Below are positions 14,974 through 26,722 of a stretch of DNA of 26,722 bases, piece by piece. Position 1 is the first letter of the stretch, and each line of letters starts with the position of its first letter. The notes beneath the pieces are model-generated. The model had not been told where the DNA came from and made no database searches. It saw only the letters and a program-made list of their open reading frames with translations. This DNA comes from a virus (lineage: Duplodnaviria; Heunggongvirae; Uroviricota; Caudoviricetes). The stretch lies in the IMG/VR virus record IMGVR_UViG_2531839454_000026; one strand, 5' to 3'. A program made the translations under genes and the position numbers.

Positions 14974-16173
14974 ATGGCTTTTACAAAAATCAGAATCGAT
15001 AATCTGTTTTGCTTTGAAAATAGCATCCTTGACTTAAGCTTCTCCAGACCCCCGATCAACAGCTCACTGGAAGGTGAGTACATTGATGGATTTGAAAAGT
15101 TCTACTTCAAAAAGGTTTGCATCGTTTCTGGTGCTAATGCATCTGGTAAAACATCTCTTGGTCGCGTGATGCTTTCTGTGTTGCGTTTTCTCAGTAGTGG
15201 TGTTTTCAATCCAGAACCGTTAAAAATTACTGACAAAAGAAAACCTGCATATATAGAGGTTGACTTTTTCCAGAGTCATTTAAAATGTTTGTTTAGGGCA
15301 GGTGTCTGGCTTAGGGCTATGGATGAGTCTGTTGTTGTAGAAAAAATTGCAATGGCATCTGTTGATTTAAGAAGCTCGGAATCATGCGCAAAGACGACCA
15401 AAAGACTGGATGCTGTGTGGGATGCGCAAAAGTTTGAATTAAATGGTCAAAATAGATTTTTTTCAACCGAAAACGCTAACTCAAAAGAATTTTCCCAATA
15501 TTTAGAGGGTTTGGACTTTGTTCTTGGTTGGCATTTCATTCTATCTGAAAACCAAGAGAACACGGATAAAATATCACGAATTAAGAAGAATGTGCTTAAT
15601 AGCATATTAAAAACCTTTGACAATACTGTTAAATCTGTCTCAGGACTCACTCTTAAAGATGATGAGGGAAAGGAGGATTTGCAGGGTTATTCAGTAGTCT
15701 TCAATAATGGAGATAGAGTTATTATTGATATGGAAGGTGATATAACAAATAAAGATAGACTGTCTCGTGGTACTTATGAGGCAGTAAAAATATCCCATCT
15801 CCTGTCAGGAGTGCTTGAAGATAAAATAGAAGAGCGAGAGTTCAATTTCCCTTGCAGTGGGGTGTACTTTTTGGATGAGAAAATGGCCTTCACTCATACT
15901 GAATTAGAAAAAATGATGGTCACGCTGATTATATCTAAGCTTTGCAGATATGGTCAATTTATATACACCACACATAATTATGATATCTTGAGCTTAGATC
16001 TGCCTACGCATTCATATACTTTTACTAAAAAAGTAGATGGTGTAACCACTTTTGTTGAAGCTACCACACATCATAAAAAGAATGATCGCAATCTTTTAAA
16101 TAAAGTAAAAAATGACTGTTTTGCAACAATACCTGACGTTTCATTAATCGAAGAGATGCTATTTGAGGATTGA
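14974..16173 (+). CDS. ABC-type (OLD/AriA/AbiLi-like) ATPase, first gene of accessory cassette
   Basis: 399 aa; SMC/RecF-like N-terminus IRIDNLFCFEN; Walker A GANASGKTS; Walker B VYFLDE; H-loop-like TTHNYD; large insertion between Walker A and B; AT-rich codon usage. Confidence 0.8.
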   Translation: MAFTKIRIDNLFCFENSILDLSFSRPPINSSLEGEYIDGFEKFYFKKVCIVSGANASGKTSLGRVMLSVLRFLSSGVFNPEPLKITDKRKPAYIEVDFFQSHLKCLFRAGVWLRAMDESVVVEKIAMASVDLRSSESCAKTTKRLDAVWDAQKFELNGQNRFFSTENANSKEFSQYLEGLDFVLGWHFILSENQENTDKISRIKKNVLNSILKTFDNTVKSVSGLTLKDDEGKEDLQGYSVVFNNGDRVIIDMEGDITNKDRLSRGTYEAVKISHLLSGVLEDKIEEREFNFPCSGVYFLDEKMAFTHTELEKMMVTLIISKLCRYGQFIYTTHNYDILSLDLPTHSYTFTKKVDGVTTFVEATTHHKKNDRNLLNKVKNDCFATIPDVSLIEEMLFED

Positions 16174-16694
16174 TTATGGCAGTTAAGAAATTTGCTATTA
16201 TTCTTGTTGAGGGAGATACGGAAAAAGCATTGTTTCAGGATTTCAAAACATTGCTAGGCTATCCTATTAAGAAAATAGTAATTGCTAATTTATGGAATGT
16301 TAATATAAATAAATACATGCCAGCATTAACCGAAAATAGCGAAATCATAGTGGTTTTTGATACGGATAGGATTGAGAATCTTGATAGATTTAAGAATAAT
16401 CTCAATCTATTAAAGGCGAAAAAACACACAATCCACCTATTTCAACAAACAAGCAATTTTGAGGATGAGCTTGCCAATGCTTGTGGTGTAAGTAATAGAA
16501 AGTTGTATTCTTGTTTTTGCCCAAAGATCATCTCTGCAGATAACTTCAAGAATGAATTCATTGCGCTGCGCAACAGGATGATGAAATTAGATGGACTTGG
16601 ACTAAATAAAACGTTGCTTTGGAGTAGAGGGATTATCCCCCAATTGAGAGATTATAATTTTCATGTTTCCTCTCATGATGATTATTTTTTATAA
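16170..16694 (+). CDS. Small TOPRIM-like putative nuclease (RloB/DUF4276-like), second gene of accessory cassette
   Basis: 174 aa; start overlaps ATPase stop (ATGA); ILVEGDTE (conserved Glu) and VVFDTDR (DxD) about 50 residues apart = TOPRIM metal-binding signature. Confidence 0.7.
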   Translation: MIMAVKKFAIILVEGDTEKALFQDFKTLLGYPIKKIVIANLWNVNINKYMPALTENSEIIVVFDTDRIENLDRFKNNLNLLKAKKHTIHLFQQTSNFEDELANACGVSNRKLYSCFCPKIISADNFKNEFIALRNRMMKLDGLGLNKTLLWSRGIIPQLRDYNFHVSSHDDYFL

Positions 16695-16736
16695 AAATAA
16701 TAGTCCTCATTAAGATAAACATATTTTAAGACACAA

Positions 16737-16755
16737 GACCGCCAGCTAGGCGGCC
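16737..16755. terminator. Candidate bidirectional terminator between the convergent cassette (+) and parMR (-)
   Basis: CCGCC-AGCTA-GGCGG hairpin with an outer G-C pair, flanked by T-rich sequence on both strands. Confidence 0.35.
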
Positions 16756-16824
16756 TTATATCTTTGACGTTCGACTCCTTATTTGTTGATTGTTTTCAGA
16801 ACTGGAAACCTCCCGTGCAAAGTT

Positions 16825-17136
16825 CTAATCGGGAAATAACGCCCGGATATTTCCGGCCATCTGACTGGTTATCTGTGCGGTGGGGGCTGTCTGTAACATG
16901 TGGCGTTCTGCCCTGGTTTGTGTCACTGATAACGCTTCATCGTCAGCCCATGCAGCCAGTCGGTAAGCCTCTGCCGGATTCATTTTCAGAAGTGCCAGCC
17001 CGGCCAGAAAAGCCACGCGTTGGCCGCTTTTGCGGGCTTCTGGTGTAAGGCTGTCCAGCCAGGCGCATGCTTCGCCTTCGTTCTTGACGGCGGCGGGCTT
17101 CAGATAGAAACTTATCCGTCTGGTTGGTATCGTCAT
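16825..17136 (-). CDS. parR: ParR-like centromere-binding adaptor
   Basis: ATG at 17136 with RBS GGAG, 4 nt after parM stop; 103 aa; RRISFYLKP...LDSLTPEARKSGQRVAFLAGLAL resembles R1 ParR (RRTIAFKLNP...LDSIPQGERSRLNRAALTAGLAL, from memory). Confidence 0.7.
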   Translation of the reverse strand: MTIPTRRISFYLKPAAVKNEGEACAWLDSLTPEARKSGQRVAFLAGLALLKMNPAEAYRLAAWADDEALSVTQTRAERHMLQTAPTAQITSQMAGNIRALFPD

Positions 17137-17140
17137 TGGT

Positions 17141-18100
17141 TTACTCCTTGTCCATTGCGTACAAACCATTGACCAGAGCAAACTGTGGCACCCCGTCCGC
17201 GATGAAAGTCGCATTAACTCCGCAGGCTTCGCGGATAGCGGGTGCCACAATCTCCGCCCCTCCACCGACAACCATCACCCGCCCGTAACCCGAAAAACCC
17301 GCCAGCGCGCGGATCACTCGTTGTTTCAGTGTTTCTTCCTTTTCACGAATAACCGCCATCAGGCTGTCGTAATGCGCGTCATTGTGGATGTGCTGGCGCA
17401 GCCAGGCTTCATCATGGCGATGTTCGATAATGGTATTGGCGATGTGGTGACTGGTGCGCATACCGTTAGTGGCCATCACCGACAGTACGGCATCGGCCAT
17501 CAGAGAAACGCCTACGTGTGGATCGCAAAACACCTGGCTGATACCTGCCAGTTGCCCCTGAACCTTTGCCACATCCAGCGTGGTTCCGCCCAAATCCACA
17601 ATCAGCAGGGATTCAAACGGACTCATGTCAGCCAGTGCCTTAAAGCCAGCCGGAATGGATTCAGGCATAACCCGTACGTTACGGATAGTGAATGCTTCGC
17701 CGTTCTGGTACTCCACCGGGCGCATGACGTTCGCTTTTTTGCGGTTGATGTTGGCCATGTCCGGCTGTGCGTTTGTGTCGAAATACTCGCTCAGTGGCAG
17801 GGTGACAACCACATCCACCTCCTGTGGCGTGATGCCTGATTTGACCAGTGCGTGATGAATGGCAATGACATTCACATCACTGTACTGGTATTGCGTGTCG
17901 GTCGTCTGGACAAAGCGATCGCTGACCGGATCAAAACCATAGCGCACGCCATCAAGCATGTAGTTCGCGGGCTGCGTGCCACCGAACGGCGCAGACCATT
18001 CCGACTTGAAGCTGTTCGGGCTGATGGCGTTGCGGCGTTCGCCGTTCTCAGTCCATGCCAGCTTGATGTTGGTGGAGCCGTCGTCGATACAAATTTTCAT
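17141..18100 (-). CDS. parM: ParM/StbA actin-like segregation ATPase
   Basis: 319 aa; phosphate-1 IDDGSTNIKL, phosphate-2 LIVDLGGTTLDV, adenosine motif VMVVGGGAEIV; N-terminus nearly identical in pattern to R1 ParM. Confidence 0.9.
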   Translation of the reverse strand: MKICIDDGSTNIKLAWTENGERRNAISPNSFKSEWSAPFGGTQPANYMLDGVRYGFDPVSDRFVQTTDTQYQYSDVNVIAIHHALVKSGITPQEVDVVVTLPLSEYFDTNAQPDMANINRKKANVMRPVEYQNGEAFTIRNVRVMPESIPAGFKALADMSPFESLLIVDLGGTTLDVAKVQGQLAGISQVFCDPHVGVSLMADAVLSVMATNGMRTSHHIANTIIEHRHDEAWLRQHIHNDAHYDSLMAVIREKEETLKQRVIRALAGFSGYGRVMVVGGGAEIVAPAIREACGVNATFIADGVPQFALVNGLYAMDKE

Positions 18101-18129
18101 GTCGCTTTTCCTTATGTTGATTAATTAAT

Positions 18130-18244
18130 CGTTTACGGGATTCTGAAATCCCGTTTTTGCCTGTTTTGTGCGCGCTTCATATATCGCGGCGCGTTTTTTG
18201 CTCATTTACGGGATTTGTGAATCCCGTTTCTGTCTGTTTTTTGT
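18130..18244. repeat. Two ~40-bp direct repeats, each with a perfect 8-bp-arm palindrome (ACGGGATT-N4-AATCCCGT) and a T-run, flanking a third hairpin; spans A stop and the parM upstream region
   Basis: Palindromes at 18135..18154 and 18208..18227 (73 bp apart); hairpin CGCGC-N13-GCGCG + T6 at 18171..18199. Confidence 0.8.
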
Positions 18245-21002
18245 TTCCACTGGTCAGGCCACCCCGCAGCAGGTATGCTTTGCGGCGGGCGCGTTCAGTG
18301 GTTTCACTGATTCTCTGTGCGTGCTCTGCGTCGCGGATGGCGCGCAGCATGTCAGAAAGCACGGTAACGGGTGTTTTCATGGTGTTCTGGTCTTGCTGAA
18401 GTGTGGATGCCAGGCGTGCGGCGGCTTCAGGGTCTGATGCCCCCAGCTGTTCCAGATAGCTGGCGACCGGGTTATGGCGGATCTCCGTGCTGCTTACGCC
18501 GTGATTACGGCTCAGGCGTTGCCAGAGCTGCGTGATTCGGCTGTCCGGGCGGGTATCCGGTTTGCGTACAATTTCAAATCCCTGCGGTGCAATGATGCTG
18601 CCGTCAACGTACAGACTGCCACCCCGTAACAGGTGCAGCATCTGCTGTTCACCGATATGCAGGCCGAGAGATTCAGCAGACTCCCGCCATTCTTTAGCGA
18701 GTAACTCGTGGTTATCAGGCAAAGGCCGCGGCTGTTTGCGGCTCTGCGTCCAGTTCTGCATTTCATCGCTGCTGTTTTTGGCCTGTTTGTCACGCAGCGA
18801 ACGCATCAGCGCCCGGCGTTCGTGCCGTTTCAGTGAGTGCATCCATTCATTCACTTCAATGCCGTCAGGAAGCTGCGGCCACGGTGCTGGCCGTTCTTCC
18901 GGCTGTTCTGTCCCGTTGTTGTCTGTTTCCTGTACACGGGGACAGTTATTGCCACGAGTCCAAGGGGCGGCAGGGCCGCCCTGAAGGTCAAAACCATTTT
19001 CGCGGGCGCTGTCTTCCGCTTCCGGTTTACGTCTTACCAGCTTCCAGTTATCCGGGTGCGTGCACACGCGGGAAGATTCCCCTATTTGTGGCGACCAGAT
19101 CCCGTAAATCTGTACGCTTTGCTCGCCGTAATCGTTCAGCTCTTCTGCGAGGTCGTAGGCGGTGCGAATCAGGTAATCTTTGCGTGGAACAAGTACGCCA
19201 CCCTGTTTCTCTATGTAGGTGGCAAAACATCCGGCATCAGCGGCAGCAAGAACCGCGTCCATTGCGTCATCCTTCAGCCGTTGCGGGCCTTCCGGGTTGC
19301 GTGCCATCTGGCTGGCAAGGCGACGCAGTTCACGCCACACCTGACGGGAAGGGATACCAAAGAACTGGAACTGGCGGACCCGGTGAAGGCGCGCCCAGCC
19401 GATGGCGCGTTCCACGCTCTCGGCCATTGATTTTCCGGTTTCGTGGTCAACGCGTGGCTTGCCCGTTTTCGGGTCGATGCCATCCACGGCGCGGCTGTCC
19501 AGGTTCTTTCCGATGTAGGTGGCGATGTAGCTGGTTGGCGTGCCTTTTGAGCCGTCTACGTACTCCGCCTTAAAACGCGGAGTTATGTCATCGCCCAGCT
19601 CGTGGCGGTCTTCCTGAATGGCGATATCGCAGACGTGGGACACGATGGTTTCAATCTCGTCCGGGTGTGCAAAGACCATCATATGCCAGTGCACGGTACC
19701 GTCATGGTGAGGCTCCACCGTGCGGATGCCATACCAGCGCAGACCGTCGCGGTTCAGTTTTTTGCGGACCGCCGCAAAAAACGTGTTAACCAGGTAATCG
19801 CTGGAGTCGCGCATGGTGGCCCCGTTCCATTTGGGGTTCGGATGACCGTTCTCCGTTGTTGCGTGGTATTTTGACGGGCAGGTGACAGTCAGAAACACCG
19901 CTCTGTCGCCACGGGCTTCGGCCAGAAGTTCCAGCCCTTTCATGGTGGCCATCATTTCTGCCTTACGGTGGACCGGGTTACTTACTCCCGCGTAATACAC
20001 CGTCTCGAGATCAATCGTGAACCCGTCTTCATTTTCCAGCATGAAACTTTTCAGGAAATCGCGTGTTTTCTCGCGCTGTGCGCGAAATTCACTTAATGCG
20101 TCCTGACTCAGATAGGGCGATGTTTTTCTGGAAACCAGACAGGCAGCGCGGAGTTGTTCCTCTCTCCATTCGCAACGTAAAAGCCACAGTTTGCGTTTCC
20201 ACCATTCCGCACAGGTCAGGCGAAGGATTGCGCCCGGCAGCAGTTCCGTATCCGGTTCGCTCTTGTTCAGGGCTTCGTAATGTGGCGGCATGATGTGCAG
20301 GCGTAATGCGATACGAGCCAGCATCCGGTAAGCCTTCAACATTACATCCATGGTCAGCTCGCCATCTCTGGCACCAAAGCCATCGCAGAGTGTTTCGAAG
20401 GTGCTGCTGAACATCGCCGCGGTCATGGTGGCCAGCGTCTGTATCTGGTGTTTGTTGAGCTGCGGCAGGGAAAGCAAATCGTCCAGGCGTTCGCGCCCGG
20501 CAAGGGAGCGATAACCCGGTGTCAGCCAGCGTCCGTCAGTGCGATCCAGACGTTCGAATATTTTGCGCAGGGTTCCGCGTGCATAGCGTTCCGCCTGCCA
20601 GCTCTTTTTGCCTTTCTGGCGATCGGCTTCCTGTTTTTTGCGCAGGAAAGAGAGGTGACGGCTCAGTGGTTCACGCAGATAAACAGGTAGTGCCTTTAGT
20701 GTGGCAAAGGCACGGGCTACCGGGTCTTGTTCTGTTGCCCGGCGCTTACTGATGATGCTCTGTGCCAGCTTTTCACGCTGTCCGGCTTCCTCAAGGGATG
20801 CCATGAGTTTTTTACCCATGGCGGATTGTGCGAAAAAGGCTTCTTCCTTCGCTTCCTGTTCTTCCAGTGCCCTTTTGTCTGCCTCAAGGTAGTAACGGAT
20901 GGCGCGTTGCAGGTCGGTTTCAGTTTCCTGCCTGCGCTCCGTAAATCTGGCCGGATCAATGGCTGGCCGTGGTTCATTCCAGCTCCATGCAAACTCGCTC
21001 AT
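18177..21002 (-). CDS. A: Replication initiation endonuclease A (rolling-circle, gpA family)
   Basis: VEPHHDGTVHWHMM and YIATYIGKNLD motifs; likely start MSEFAWSWNEP at 21002 (ATGA overlap with upstream ORF), ORF track start 21029. Confidence 0.9.
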   Translation of the reverse strand: MSEFAWSWNEPRPAIDPARFTERRQETETDLQRAIRYYLEADKRALEEQEAKEEAFFAQSAMGKKLMASLEEAGQREKLAQSIISKRRATEQDPVARAFATLKALPVYLREPLSRHLSFLRKKQEADRQKGKKSWQAERYARGTLRKIFERLDRTDGRWLTPGYRSLAGRERLDDLLSLPQLNKHQIQTLATMTAAMFSSTFETLCDGFGARDGELTMDVMLKAYRMLARIALRLHIMPPHYEALNKSEPDTELLPGAILRLTCAEWWKRKLWLLRCEWREEQLRAACLVSRKTSPYLSQDALSEFRAQREKTRDFLKSFMLENEDGFTIDLETVYYAGVSNPVHRKAEMMATMKGLELLAEARGDRAVFLTVTCPSKYHATTENGHPNPKWNGATMRDSSDYLVNTFFAAVRKKLNRDGLRWYGIRTVEPHHDGTVHWHMMVFAHPDEIETIVSHVCDIAIQEDRHELGDDITPRFKAEYVDGSKGTPTSYIATYIGKNLDSRAVDGIDPKTGKPRVDHETGKSMAESVERAIGWARLHRVRQFQFFGIPSRQVWRELRRLASQMARNPEGPQRLKDDAMDAVLAAADAGCFATYIEKQGGVLVPRKDYLIRTAYDLAEELNDYGEQSVQIYGIWSPQIGESSRVCTHPDNWKLVRRKPEAEDSARENGFDLQGGPAAPWTRGNNCPRVQETDNNGTEQPEERPAPWPQLPDGIEVNEWMHSLKRHERRALMRSLRDKQAKNSSDEMQNWTQSRKQPRPLPDNHELLAKEWRESAESLGLHIGEQQMLHLLRGGSLYVDGSIIAPQGFEIVRKPDTRPDSRITQLWQRLSRNHGVSSTEIRHNPVASYLEQLGASDPEAAARLASTLQQDQNTMKTPVTVLSDMLRAIRDAEHAQRISETTERARRKAYLLRGGLTSGNKKQTETGFTNPVNEQKTRRDI

Positions 21003-21388
21003 GGCTGGTATCCCGTCACGCGCTGCCACTCCTGCGAGAAAATGGCGGAAAGGCGGTTAAATTCAGCGGTGTATTCACTCAGCGAGGCACACCCGCCAGC
21101 AGTGCGATGCGCCAGCATTGCCGCGAATACGGAGGCCGGGGAGTCGTAATACGCCAGCAGTGATTCGCCGTGTGGTGTCAGGCAGTGCAACGCCAGCCCG
21201 TGTGGTGTGAAATCCACGCGGTAGCAGTCGTCTACTGTGAAATAAAGGGTGTCCGCATTCTCCGGTTTTGTAGTGCGTGCTCTGTTGTCACGACCACGGA
21301 TGTAAAGATCAAATAATCCCTGAAGAACGGGAGCCAGACGGGTGTCCTGTGTGCGCACCCATCTTGTGAAGTCATGAGCGTCAATCAT
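20999..21388 (-). CDS. Hypothetical early protein
   Basis: 129-aa ORF translationally coupled to A. Confidence 0.5.
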   Translation of the reverse strand: MIDAHDFTRWVRTQDTRLAPVLQGLFDLYIRGRDNRARTTKPENADTLYFTVDDCYRVDFTPHGLALHCLTPHGESLLAYYDSPASVFAAMLAHRTAGGCASLSEYTAEFNRLSAIFSQEWQRVTGYQP

Positions 21389-21460
21389 GCTGCAATTCTC
21401 TTTACTACAGATGTGCGAAGGCCTCCCGCCGCAAGGTGCAGGAAAGGCCCGGAACAGGAA

Positions 21461-21691
21461 TTAATGGAGTTTGTTTTGCTGCTGGATGAGCTGCTGAAGC
21501 TCGCGCAGATCATCCGCCAGATAGCTGAAAACAGCGGATGAGTAGAGGTTTGAAAGTTCGCAGCTACGCTCATGCAGCATATTGATGTGCATGATTTTAG
21601 CGACACGGAATGCGCGGGAAAGTCTGCGGTTGATTTCAGTCTGGATGTGACGACGCTCCGCGATAGCGCGGTGCTGTTTGCGGTTTGCCAT
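21461..21691 (-). CDS. Hypothetical small basic protein
   Basis: 76-aa ORF in early operon orientation. Confidence 0.4.
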   Translation of the reverse strand: MANRKQHRAIAERRHIQTEINRRLSRAFRVAKIMHINMLHERSCELSNLYSSAVFSYLADDLRELQQLIQQQNKLH

Positions 21692-21864
21692 GGGGTGGCC
21701 TCTTTGGTTGTAAGTTTTGAAAACTCACCATCCAGAGCTGCGAAACTGTGGGTGGCGAGACGTACGGGGTTCGCAGTACCGGCAACCAAAGAACCCGGCC
21801 CGACCGAAGTCGGCCCCGTACGCCCCGCCATAATTCGTGTGCGAAAAAGACGTGGCAATACAGT

Positions 21865-21897
21865 ACGCACAAAAAAACCGCTGGCGCGGTTGTGCGC
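21865..21897 (-). terminator. Candidate intrinsic terminator inside the early operon
   Basis: On the - strand: AACCGC-GCCA-GCGGTT hairpin immediately followed by TTTTT, with flanking GCGCAC/GTGCGC outer arms. Confidence 0.4.
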
Positions 21898-22027
21898 TTT
21901 GGTTGTCAGCAGGCTGCGAAACCCGGCACCCGTTTTATGAGGTGCAGCGAAAATGTAACCTGACTGATTGCGGCATGGCAAGCGGTTTTTTTGTGAGAAC
22001 GGCATACTAAAAAATCCTGATACTGCT

Positions 22028-22058: not shown

Positions 22059-22889
22059 TTACTTCACCGGAACAAACGGAACAGCGGTATTGCTGGTCAT
22101 GTATTGCGGCAGCGTGCCGTTCCATTTGTTGATTGCTTCCAGCTCCATAACGCCGGGATTCTGGCGCAGAGCTTCACCGCGTAAACGAATGGCGTCGGCT
22201 TCAGCCTGGGCTTTTGTGCGAATGGCATCAGCCTGTCCGGCAGCTTCTGCGCGCAACATGTTGGCTTCTGCTTCGCGCTGTTTTACTTCCTGTTCGCGTT
22301 GCAGGGTTTTCTGGTTCGCTGTGACTTTGGCATTAATGCTGTCGATCACGGTTGGCGGGTATTCCGGTTTACCGACATAAGAGAGGCTCATTACCTGAAT
22401 GCCGATAGGTGTCATTTCTGCCTGAATGTCTTTAAGTGCTGAATCCAGCAGTTCAGACTTGCCACCGTCGATAAACTTATCGGTGGTCATTTTGCTGGCC
22501 AGTCGGTTGAGTGCATCGGCGATCTTTTGGCGCAGGTCAGTGTCGGTAATGTCATCCACGCCTTTGCGGTAGGTCTGAAACACTGTGGTAACTTTGGATG
22601 GATCAACCTTGTAGGCCACACCGATGTGATAGCCGATGGTTGTGCCGTCACTCATCTGAAAGCTGAATGGCTCATCGTAGGTCTTCATTTGTTTGAAGGT
22701 CGGGAAGATGTAAACCTCGGTATTCCAGCCTGTCCAGTAGCGGCCAACGCCAACCACTTCACCGACGCCTTTATCGTCGCCCAGTTTGTTGACTTTGATG
22801 CCCACATTACCTGGCTCAACGCGATCGCAACCAACCAGCAGGATGGCGGCAAAAAGCGGGATAATCTGAAAGAGTTTGAATTTCTTCAT
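22059..22889 (-). CDS. SPFH/band-7 (prohibitin/stomatin-like) lipoprotein
   Basis: 276 aa; signal peptide with lipobox LLVGC; central SPFH-like region followed by Ala/Glu/Gln-rich coiled-coil (QREAEANMLRAEAAGQADAIRTKAQAEADAIRLRGEA). Confidence 0.8.
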   Translation of the reverse strand: MKKFKLFQIIPLFAAILLVGCDRVEPGNVGIKVNKLGDDKGVGEVVGVGRYWTGWNTEVYIFPTFKQMKTYDEPFSFQMSDGTTIGYHIGVAYKVDPSKVTTVFQTYRKGVDDITDTDLRQKIADALNRLASKMTTDKFIDGGKSELLDSALKDIQAEMTPIGIQVMSLSYVGKPEYPPTVIDSINAKVTANQKTLQREQEVKQREAEANMLRAEAAGQADAIRTKAQAEADAIRLRGEALRQNPGVMELEAINKWNGTLPQYMTSNTAVPFVPVK

Positions 22890-25666: not shown

Positions 25667-25732
25667 CCCTTTATTATTCTTACGTTTTACAAACTGGAAA
25701 TGTCTTTCCTCGTTTCACCGGAGGGCTTGCCA

Positions 25733-26722
25733 ATGGCAATTAAAGCGCTCGATGGTGGACGGTATAAAGTGGATGTTAGACCGCGTGGCCGAAGTGGACG
25801 TCGGATTCAGCGGATTTTTAAGAAAAAGGCAGATGCAGTGGCCTTTGAGCGTTATGTTCTCAGCCACATGCACGATAAGGAATGGCTTGAAAAGCCAACA
25901 GAGCAACGTCATCTCTCAGATCTGCTTCCGTTATGGTGGGAATTGGGGGGACGCAATAAGCCATATGCTAACGGCGTTCTAACCAGGTTGAAAAAAATCA
26001 TCAAAGAAATGAATGATCCAAGGGTTAGCCAGATTAATGCTCGTTTCATGGCCGCTTATCGAAGCTCCCGTTTATCCTTGGGAGTAAAAGAGTCTACTGT
26101 TCGGCGTGATGAGTCGGATCTCGGAGGAATGTTTACACTCCTGGCAAATGCCGGGGAATTTCACGGAGAAAATCCGCTCCGCGCCCTCCCCTCTTTGAAA
26201 CGAAAATCACCCGAAATGACGTATCTCACCACGGAAGAAATCGCCAAATTACTGGATGCAGTAAGCGGTGATGCCCGGCGGATTACGCTACTTTGTCTCA
26301 GTACTGGGGCGAGATGGGGAGAAGCGAAAAATCTGCGCGCGGAACACATCATCAATAATCGCGTGACGTTTAACAAAACTAAAAACGGAAAAGTTCGAAT
26401 TATTCCTGTCTCTGATGAAGTTGTTAGTGAGATCAAAACAAAGAAATCCGGCCTTTTGTTTGACGTCAATTATGAGGAATATCGCAAGGTGCTTCGCAGT
26501 GTTAAGCCAGACCTACCAAAAGGACAGGCTGTACATGTTCTACGCCATACCTTTGCTGCTCACTTTATGATTAATGGAGGAAATATACTTACGCTCCAGC
26601 GAATTATGGGGCACGCTACGATCCAGCAAACTATGACCTATGCGCACCTCGCTCCTGATTTCCTCCAGGATGCAATTTCACTTAATCCGTTAAAAGGAGG
26701 CATCCACATTTCATCCACATAA
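25733..26722 (+). CDS. int: Tyrosine integrase (P2 Int family)
   Basis: MAIKALDGGRYKVDVRP... from ATG 25733 (RBS GGAGGG); catalytic-region motifs LCLSTGARWGEA, HVLRHTFAAHFMINGG, YAHLAP; ORF ends at the last base of the window. Confidence 0.95.
   Translation: MAIKALDGGRYKVDVRPRGRSGRRIQRIFKKKADAVAFERYVLSHMHDKEWLEKPTEQRHLSDLLPLWWELGGRNKPYANGVLTRLKKIIKEMNDPRVSQINARFMAAYRSSRLSLGVKESTVRRDESDLGGMFTLLANAGEFHGENPLRALPSLKRKSPEMTYLTTEEIAKLLDAVSGDARRITLLCLSTGARWGEAKNLRAEHIINNRVTFNKTKNGKVRIIPVSDEVVSEIKTKKSGLLFDVNYEEYRKVLRSVKPDLPKGQAVHVLRHTFAAHFMINGGNILTLQRIMGHATIQQTMTYAHLAPDFLQDAISLNPLKGGIHISST

Follow-up and report, generated by a model that had tools for sequence, protein, structure and literature searches.

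The virus record IMGVR_UViG_2531839454_000026 (26,722 nucleotides, hereafter the window) is a P2-like Escherichia coli prophage that carries, next to its replication gene A, a module which by homology is a genuine type II (ParMRC) partition cassette of the R1 type: an actin-like ATPase gene (parM), an adaptor gene (parR) and a candidate centromere (parC). With a probability of about 0.5, we propose that this cassette acts on the transient phage circles made by the gene A product (gpA), and not in the maintenance of a stable plasmid prophage. The following features of the window were central to this reading:

16825 to ~18270, minus strand: whole parC-parM-parR cassette, the mobile unit, with homology breakpoints at both ends.
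16825-17136, minus strand: parR, 103-amino-acid adaptor of the StbB/ParR family (PF10784, phrog_2515, ParR profile against 2JD3).
17141-18100, minus strand: parM, 319-amino-acid actin-fold ATPase of the R1 ParM/StbA family (matches in Pfam, PDB and PHROGs).
18129-18170: proximal candidate parC site, a 42-nucleotide repeat with the palindrome ACGGGATT-N4-AATCCCGT at 18135-18154 and its GGG at -52 from the parM ATG.
18202-18243: distal candidate parC site, a 42-nucleotide repeat with its palindrome at 18208-18227, inside the last codons of the gene A open reading frame.
18177-21029, minus strand: gene A, replication endonuclease (rolling-circle initiator) of 950 amino acids (Phage_GPA, 8.3e-129).
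25700-26722: tyrosine integrase, intact.

ParM matched the Pfam domains StbA_N (1.8e-82) and ParM C-terminal domain (1e-68) as well as phrog_691, a 'partition protein' family (1e-90), and it aligned end to end (residues 2-316) with the structure of R1 ParM (1mwk, E 1.3e-92). The set of motifs required of a ParM (phosphate-1, phosphate-2 and adenosine motifs and the catalytic glutamate loop) was complete, with IDDGSTNIKL at amino acid 5, the catalytic loop MPESIPAG at 145, LIVDLGGTTLDV at 166 and VVGGGAEIV at 277. ParR matched PF10784 (Plasmid_stab_B, StbB/ParR family, 2.4e-24) and phrog_2515 (7.7e-57). As a single-sequence query against the PDB the window ParR matched no solved structure, and its single-sequence AlphaFold2 model (predicted local distance difference test, pLDDT, 47.8) was too poor to use. 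A profile built from eight phage and plasmid ParRs, that of the window included, matched the pB171 ParR (2JD3, 'StbB protein') over its full length (E 1.1e-13); the likeness to this protein is thus known from the profile only, and it supports N-terminal ribbon-helix-helix DNA binding by ParR. Two parts of ParR were conserved, the N-terminal strand TRRISFYLKP and the C-terminal tail NIRALFPD (pattern NIxxLFP(D/E)). The terminal motif, (K/R)xN(A/I)xxLFP(D/E), aligned with the C-terminus of R1-type ParR (KKNAMKLIN) and is a putative ParM-binding tail. The parM stop codon (TAA, 17143-17141) was followed after a 4-nucleotide gap by the parR ATG at 17136, and AAGGAG (17149-17144) lay within the last parM codons, an arrangement by which the two genes are predicted to be translationally coupled. 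The ribosome-binding site (RBS) of parM was AAGGA at 18113-18109, and parM started 76 nucleotides past the gene A stop, a position that we take to be the tin/old slot of P2.

The window region was 100% identical to part of the chromosome of E. coli 504838, where it formed a complete P2-like prophage with the integrase abutting pheL/pheA. By its layout (P2-type A, portal, terminase, capsid and cox/C/int), as seen from Pfam matches and the annotation of the source region, the element belongs among the P2-like phages (Peduoviridae; P88-like, Xuanwuvirus). Its DNA was ~97% identical to that of phage P88 and other Xuanwuvirus records, and also to that of Citrobacter phage phiSM. Since P88 came from an induction and phiSM makes plaques, carriers of the cassette are viable phages. 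An earlier note on this DNA, made from the letters alone, had described a coupled pair (RBS, 4-nucleotide gap) of a 319-amino-acid product with actin-fold ATPase motifs and a 103-amino-acid ParR-like product, directly downstream of A in the tin slot of an integrative P2-like prophage, with repeats at 18130..18244. This description was borne out throughout: the profile and structure comparisons placed the larger protein in the ParM family and the smaller in that of ParR, the prophage was integrated beside pheA, and the repeats resolved into two real 42-nucleotide direct repeats with palindromes.

The two repeats were 81% identical, and each contained a perfect 8+8 palindrome that conforms to CGGG-N10-CCCG, the two being spaced by 73 bp. 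No further copy of CGGG-N10-CCCG was found in the window beyond these two; the looser GGG-N10-CCC occurred five times (0.19 per kb). Relative to the parM ATG, the GGG-N10-CCC pair was located at -125/-52 in the window, at -131/-59 in Plesiomonas and at -128/-55 in Hafnia, so that a spacing of 72-73 bp (~7 helical turns) was kept in three genera, the upstream DNA of Plesiomonas and Hafnia being otherwise diverged. In cassette-less relatives, both sites were gone together with parMR. The two sites are therefore a candidate centromere and predicted ParR binding sites. The palindromes were also considered as terminators. They were terminator-like on the plus strand only, where no gene needs one, and this reading was rejected because both sites are co-inherited with parMR and their position is kept in three genera. 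On the coding strand, the terminator scan gave no terminator-like site between A and parM.

The ParR strand and the type of upstream site varied together. The E. coli, Plesiomonas and Hafnia lineages, with GGG-N10-CCC sites, had TRR(I/V)SFYL in common; a Serratia/Enterobacter subclade had NRKISFYL and a different conserved inverted repeat; the R1-like plasmid L008 had RRTIAFKL and 11-bp AAACCC-type iterons upstream. This co-variation is suggestive but is not proof. In the Serratia (L012, 7880-7980) and Enterobacter (L016) members of the subclade, the DNA upstream of parM held a ~19-nucleotide inverted repeat, GGGAAC...ATAGAAAAAT / ATTTTTCT..., with a 28-nucleotide spacer, as well as a TTTAAACGGC element. 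A single motif common to all P2-like ParMRs was rejected, since this subclade lacked GGG-N10-CCC. As a separate observation, a degraded O157:H7 remnant prophage (L005), with IS3 beside parR, had intact parM, parR and A and a substituted proximal palindrome (CGGGATTTAAAAATCCTG).

Among the closest known systems, ParMRC (StbAB) of R1/NR1 has the same gene order (parC-parM-parR) with repeats upstream of parM. The window ParM was 46.5% identical to the ParM of an R1-like IncF plasmid and 54% identical to an IncI ParM, with all nucleotide-binding motifs kept, and its ParR belongs to the same Pfam family with a similar C-terminal tail, the putative ParM-binding part. The two systems differed in their carrier (an integrative phage versus a low-copy plasmid), in the centromere (two palindromic sites 73 bp apart versus two blocks of five 11-bp AAACCC-type iterons), in the lack of a clear sigma-70 promoter between the window sites, and in the length of ParR, which has 103 amino acids with an internal gap in the window and 116 in plasmid L008.

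By homology with R1, ParR dimers would bind the two CGGG-N10-CCCG sites upstream of parM, the conserved C-terminal tail of ParR would capture the ends of ATP-ParM filaments, and filament growth between two ParR/parC complexes would push sister DNA molecules apart. The genomic context suggests that most transcription of the cassette comes with that of the early operon (cox...A-parM-parR), and expression with this operon would lead it to act on the extrachromosomal circles that arise through gpA once the phage has infected a cell or been induced. The benefit may be that circles are spread or positioned for replication or packaging, or that they are delivered to both daughter cells before integration. 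The earlier note had also proposed that the actin homologue was repurposed, and the DNA-positioning half of that proposal is the reading favoured here, although it is unproven.

Co-transcription with the early replication operon is the simplest reading of parMR expression. A strict scan gave no sigma-70 promoter upstream of parM, and the sole candidate there came from a relaxed scan:

18120-18147, minus strand: weak promoter-like element, -35 TTCAGA (18147-18142), 16-nucleotide spacer, -10 ATTAAT (18125-18120), matching at 8 of 12 positions (4/6 + 4/6).

Its -35 hexamer falls in the proximal palindrome, and low-level autoregulated transcription of parMR is possible. The element is a weak candidate and we do not claim it as a promoter. 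The sequence ATTAATCAA upstream of the RBS was conserved in E. coli, Plesiomonas and Hafnia.

Two experimentally studied systems are precedents for a partition cassette on an element that is normally integrated. AlpAC of the integrated Corynebacterium glutamicum prophage CGP3 is induced early, and without it the excised circle does not replicate efficiently (Donovan et al. 2015, PMC4446434). Like the window cassette, AlpAC/alpS pairs an actin-like filament former with an adaptor that binds its own upstream sites; unlike it, AlpAC belongs to a distant actin-like family, has an actinobacterial host and shows the reverse gene order. It is regarded as a functional analogue and not as an orthologue. 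SrpMRC is a ParMRC-type system of the SXT/R391 integrative and conjugative elements (ICEs), which undergo HUH rolling-circle replication when excised, and it stabilises their transient excised form, the only state in which partition is needed (Carraro et al. 2015, PMC4489591). SrpMRC differs from the window cassette in its ParM clade, in being carried by an ICE and not a phage, and in that its function has been shown experimentally. By analogy, both precedents support a role in a transient episomal state.

Cassette matches were found in 1307 of 5426 complete E. coli genomes, so that about a quarter of these genomes carry an actin-type segregation cassette in an integrative phage. The matches occupied 1453 chromosomal places and 2 on plasmids, and the carriers include UTI89, the ST131 strain JJ1886, and O157:H7 and O111 strains. 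The products are named 'plasmid segregation protein ParM' and 'plasmid partitioning/stability family protein' by RefSeq/PGAP, and each of the two genes has a 'partition protein' family of its own in PHROGs. A survey of 18,150 P2-like prophages of E. coli at their gpA-gpQ locus includes StbA + Plasmid_stab_B arrangements in its tables, and its authors remarked on the cassette with the same plasmid hypothesis as the earlier note (Rousset et al. 2022). In the phiSM paper, the gene is classed as a 'fitness' factor. The cassette is not mentioned in a 2026 survey of P2 hotspots, and a 2025 paper on chromosome-encoded ParMs (PMC12270681) neither covers it nor deals with prophages. The cassette is thus a common, routinely annotated and already published feature of P88-like phages, with the plasmid hypothesis likewise in print, and the novelty implied by the earlier note did not stand.

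According to that hypothesis, the element is a facultative phage-plasmid in which the cassette supports a low-copy episome in cells that lack attB or where integration does not succeed. The completeness of the partition cassette and the published suggestion speak for it, as does one record, NZ_CP148288.1, a 34.4-kb circular 'plasmid' of strain Z1323PEC0009 that consists of a whole ParMR-bearing phage. The search of 72,556 plasmid records (PLSDB) returned this record as the only credible circular phage-sized replicon with the cassette, but an identical phage was integrated in another isolate of the same study. A control query with the capsid-terminase-portal block recovered pENTAS02 of Enterobacter soli (NC_015969.1), a 32.6-kb circular 'plasmid' that is a complete P2-like phage with integrase and without ParMR, an ImmA/IrrE gene and a hypothetical gene following its A. 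Circular records are therefore not tied to ParMR, and no enrichment among ParMR carriers was seen. Three further kinds of record were discarded as evidence for an episome: 'Escherichia phage 520873' is an excerpt from a prophage, linear and with its start within a fragment of host yecA, a Shigella boydii 26.7-kb 'plasmid' is a linear piece of degraded prophage bounded by insertion sequences, and PLSDB 'plasmids' of 0.44-1.4 Mb are too large for a phage-sized episome.

The chromosomal location of 1453 of the 1455 copies, the intact integrase and the integration at pheA all speak against extrachromosomal persistence, which the earlier note had inferred as a possibility. The P2-type A was also the only replication gene found in the Pfam scan. 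It is a cis-acting rolling-circle initiator in a repressed early operon and is ill-suited to plasmid maintenance in the immune state. Neither hallmark of a phage-plasmid was found, these being an autonomous replicon in lysogens and a plasmid-type replication module, usually without an integrase. The evidence is against a phage-plasmid, at least a habitual one, and we regard facultative plasmid maintenance as unlikely. The distribution in the databases argues against the published plasmid-maintenance guess and narrows the question to a transient episomal phase.

The distribution of the cassette suggests that it is old in this group of P2-like phages. ParM of P2-like prophages was 63% identical to that of the window in Plesiomonas, 62% in Hafnia, 58-59% in Serratia and 54% in Enterobacter, and the order gpA-parM-parR-[variable cargo]-portal recurred in all four, with other genes between A and parM in Hafnia and Enterobacter. 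In a neighbour-joining tree without support values, the ParMs of these P2-like prophages fell together with those of E. coli, and the ParMs of plasmids, integrated plasmids and ICEs fell elsewhere. Outside the records that bear the prophage itself, no plasmid ParM was ≥60% identical to the window ParM, the best sampled one reaching 52% by tblastn and 54% by global alignment (the IncI ParM mentioned above). This pattern fits a single old acquisition by the ancestor of a P2-like (Peduoviridae) sublineage, followed by retention beside gene A. The only other phage with a ParM homologue in a collection of 50,697 records was the P1-like phage-plasmid D6, whose StbA-type protein was 47.8% identical; D6 is a genuine 91-kb plasmid prophage, unlike the integrative element of the window. 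Chromosomal ParMR homologues of ~50% identity were also seen in Mangrovibacter, in an integrated plasmid (Rep3, ParAB), and in Dickeya poaceiphila, in a region that resembles an ICE (TraG, TraU, integrase); phages are therefore not the only integrated elements that carry ParMRC. Chromosome-encoded cParMRs, which polymerise and for which roles 'beyond plasmid segregation' were proposed, are a further case of chromosomal ParMR cassettes, but they come mostly from Firmicutes (plus one on Burkholderia multivorans chromosome 3, Figure 1 of that paper) and are not related in detail to the prophage clade (Ali et al. 2025, PMC12270681).

The ratio of non-synonymous to synonymous substitution rates (dN/dS) was 0.02-0.11 across six parM alleles of E. 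coli, which indicates that the gene is under strong purifying selection. ParR was more variable: at least three allele classes (L004, L005, L006) occur in E. coli that are only ~50% identical to the window ParR. A recombination break was placed inside parR at ~17082 or 16991, the divergent part being 16825-17082 (codons ~19-103). Across these classes, ParM remained ≥98% identical and the upstream sites nearly invariant, and the N-terminal strand and the NIxxLFPE tail of ParR were kept. The view that the cassette is a functionless relic of past plasmid-phage recombination, passively carried, could draw on the truncation of some copies, the mutated proximal palindrome of the O157:H7 remnant and the dispensability of the cassette (see below). 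The low dN/dS, the conservation of all ATPase motifs and of the functional termini of ParR, and the persistence of synteny and site architecture down to 54-63% protein identity make such a relic very improbable.

The limits of the cassette were defined by comparison with relatives. The homology of cassette-less relatives to the window ended at 18268-18273, just outside the distal repeat, and carrier phages were homologous to one another from the parR stop codon onwards (positions 127-133 of the query 16700-18300). Because homology breaks at these two ends, the mobile unit extends over ~16825-18270 and comprises the sites, parM and parR. A junction probe (gene A 3' end plus parM start) matched 1373 genomes, of which 1277 had the A-parM junction. 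Two cassette-less prophages kept the gene A 3' end and the portal: E110019 has a Dam methylase and an AAA ATPase directly after A, and strain B2 has three hypothetical genes there. The GGG-N10-CCC site was absent from both. The A proteins of cassette-less relatives had a comparable length (921-941 amino acids) and a different C-terminal tail, and for this reason the last ~30 codons of the window A are considered to be cassette-borne.

The close association with gene A raises the option of a replication accessory, in which ParM/ParR would stimulate the HUH nickase gpA or organise the site of replication or packaging. The invariant adjacency to gene A and the position of the distal site within its 3' end are compatible with it. 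The R1 pair is an analogous case, since its ParM and ParR bind the relaxase TraI and raise its activity (PMC4949242), and a link between partition and transfer has been noted for SXT (PMC4489591). The argument is purely analogical. Hafnia and Enterobacter have genes between A and parM, and the cassette-less relatives persist with an A of comparable length. A role of this kind alone seems quite unlikely.

The variable cargo of this locus begins beyond parR. In the window, the interval between parR and the portal/cos region held two genes that together form a candidate two-gene defence system:

14974-16173, plus strand: AbiL-like AAA_15 ATPase, 399 amino acids (PADLOC AbiLi, 9.6e-28).
16170-16694, plus strand: OLD-like TOPRIM protein, 174 amino acids (PADLOC AbiLii, 6e-5).

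At the same spot, related prophages carried DUF4760, XF1762, a KAP NTPase, HicAB or a Dam methylase. The presence of the cassette in the hotspot of Rousset et al., beside the AbiL-like pair, suggests that it could itself be competition or defence cargo, with prophage ParR/ParM disturbing incoming elements with a related parC or related superinfecting phages. Its presence/absence polymorphism would agree with this, as would the occurrence of at least three ParR alleles of ~50% identity beside a nearly invariant ParM and nearly invariant sites, and the weak promoter over the proximal site could act in lysogens. PADLOC, which did match the neighbouring pair to AbiLi, gave no match for ParM or ParR, and the cassette stays next to A in at least five genera and has a clade of its own, the variable cargo being distal to parR. 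Non-prophage plasmid ParMs are <60% identical, and no site of the prophage was seen in the R1-like and IncI parC regions that were compared. UTI89 holds both the prophage cassette and an stbAB plasmid (PMC5388698), which shows coexistence. Judged by a match to a known or candidate family and by variable presence at a hotspot, the cassette would not be classed as anti-phage defence, and we consider a competitive or defensive role unlikely.

Several observations weigh against an action of the cassette on transient gpA-made circles. The benefit of partition is not obvious for a phage that lyses its cell within one generation. The candidate centromere has two sites only and no iteron array, compared with the ten iterons of R1, and the E. 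coli ParR lacks a ~25-amino-acid segment present in other ParRs; with two sites and a shorter ParR, the partition complex may have a different or an impaired geometry. Lysogens could express the cassette from a weak autoregulated promoter, which would point to another role. Furthermore, the cassette is missing from ~7% of those E. coli prophages whose gene A 3' end and portal are the same, and clusters of C-terminally truncated ParM of 188, 229 and 261 amino acids have 555, 649 and 414 members, respectively. One truncated ParM (P0010) ended in a frameshifted tail, and some truncated entries may be partial genes at contig ends. Because of the cassette-less prophages and the many truncated copies, the cassette is dispensable for prophage persistence. 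No functional study of a P2-like ParMRC (expression, binding or phenotype) was found in the literature searched.

A broader version of the proposal gives ParMRC an integral place among the early functions of a large P2-like lineage, where it would organise rolling-circle replication through a minimal two-site centromere, either by separating and positioning the monomeric circles packaged by P2-type terminases or by working with the HUH nickase gpA; we put this forward tentatively, as possible but doubtful. Should it hold, one of the commonest E. coli prophage families would have a cytomotive system of the actin type built into its lytic or establishment programme, and a recurring partnership with ParMRC would be common to integrative elements driven by HUH enzymes, both ICEs and P2-like phages. 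The practical value of the analysis is a well-posed experiment rather than a discovery. The resources for it are the cassette limits (16825 to ~18270), the two-site candidate centromere, natural cassette-less relatives and the culturable carriers P88 and phiSM.

Two further genes were observed in the early region upstream of A. A gene at 22059-22889 (minus strand) encodes an SPFH-domain/lipoprotein-like protein (phrog_200, 9e-112). At 21385-22005 (minus strand), an open reading frame of 206 amino acids was present, which is divided in RefSeq: one part is a hypothetical protein, the other a truncated 'ash family' pseudogene.

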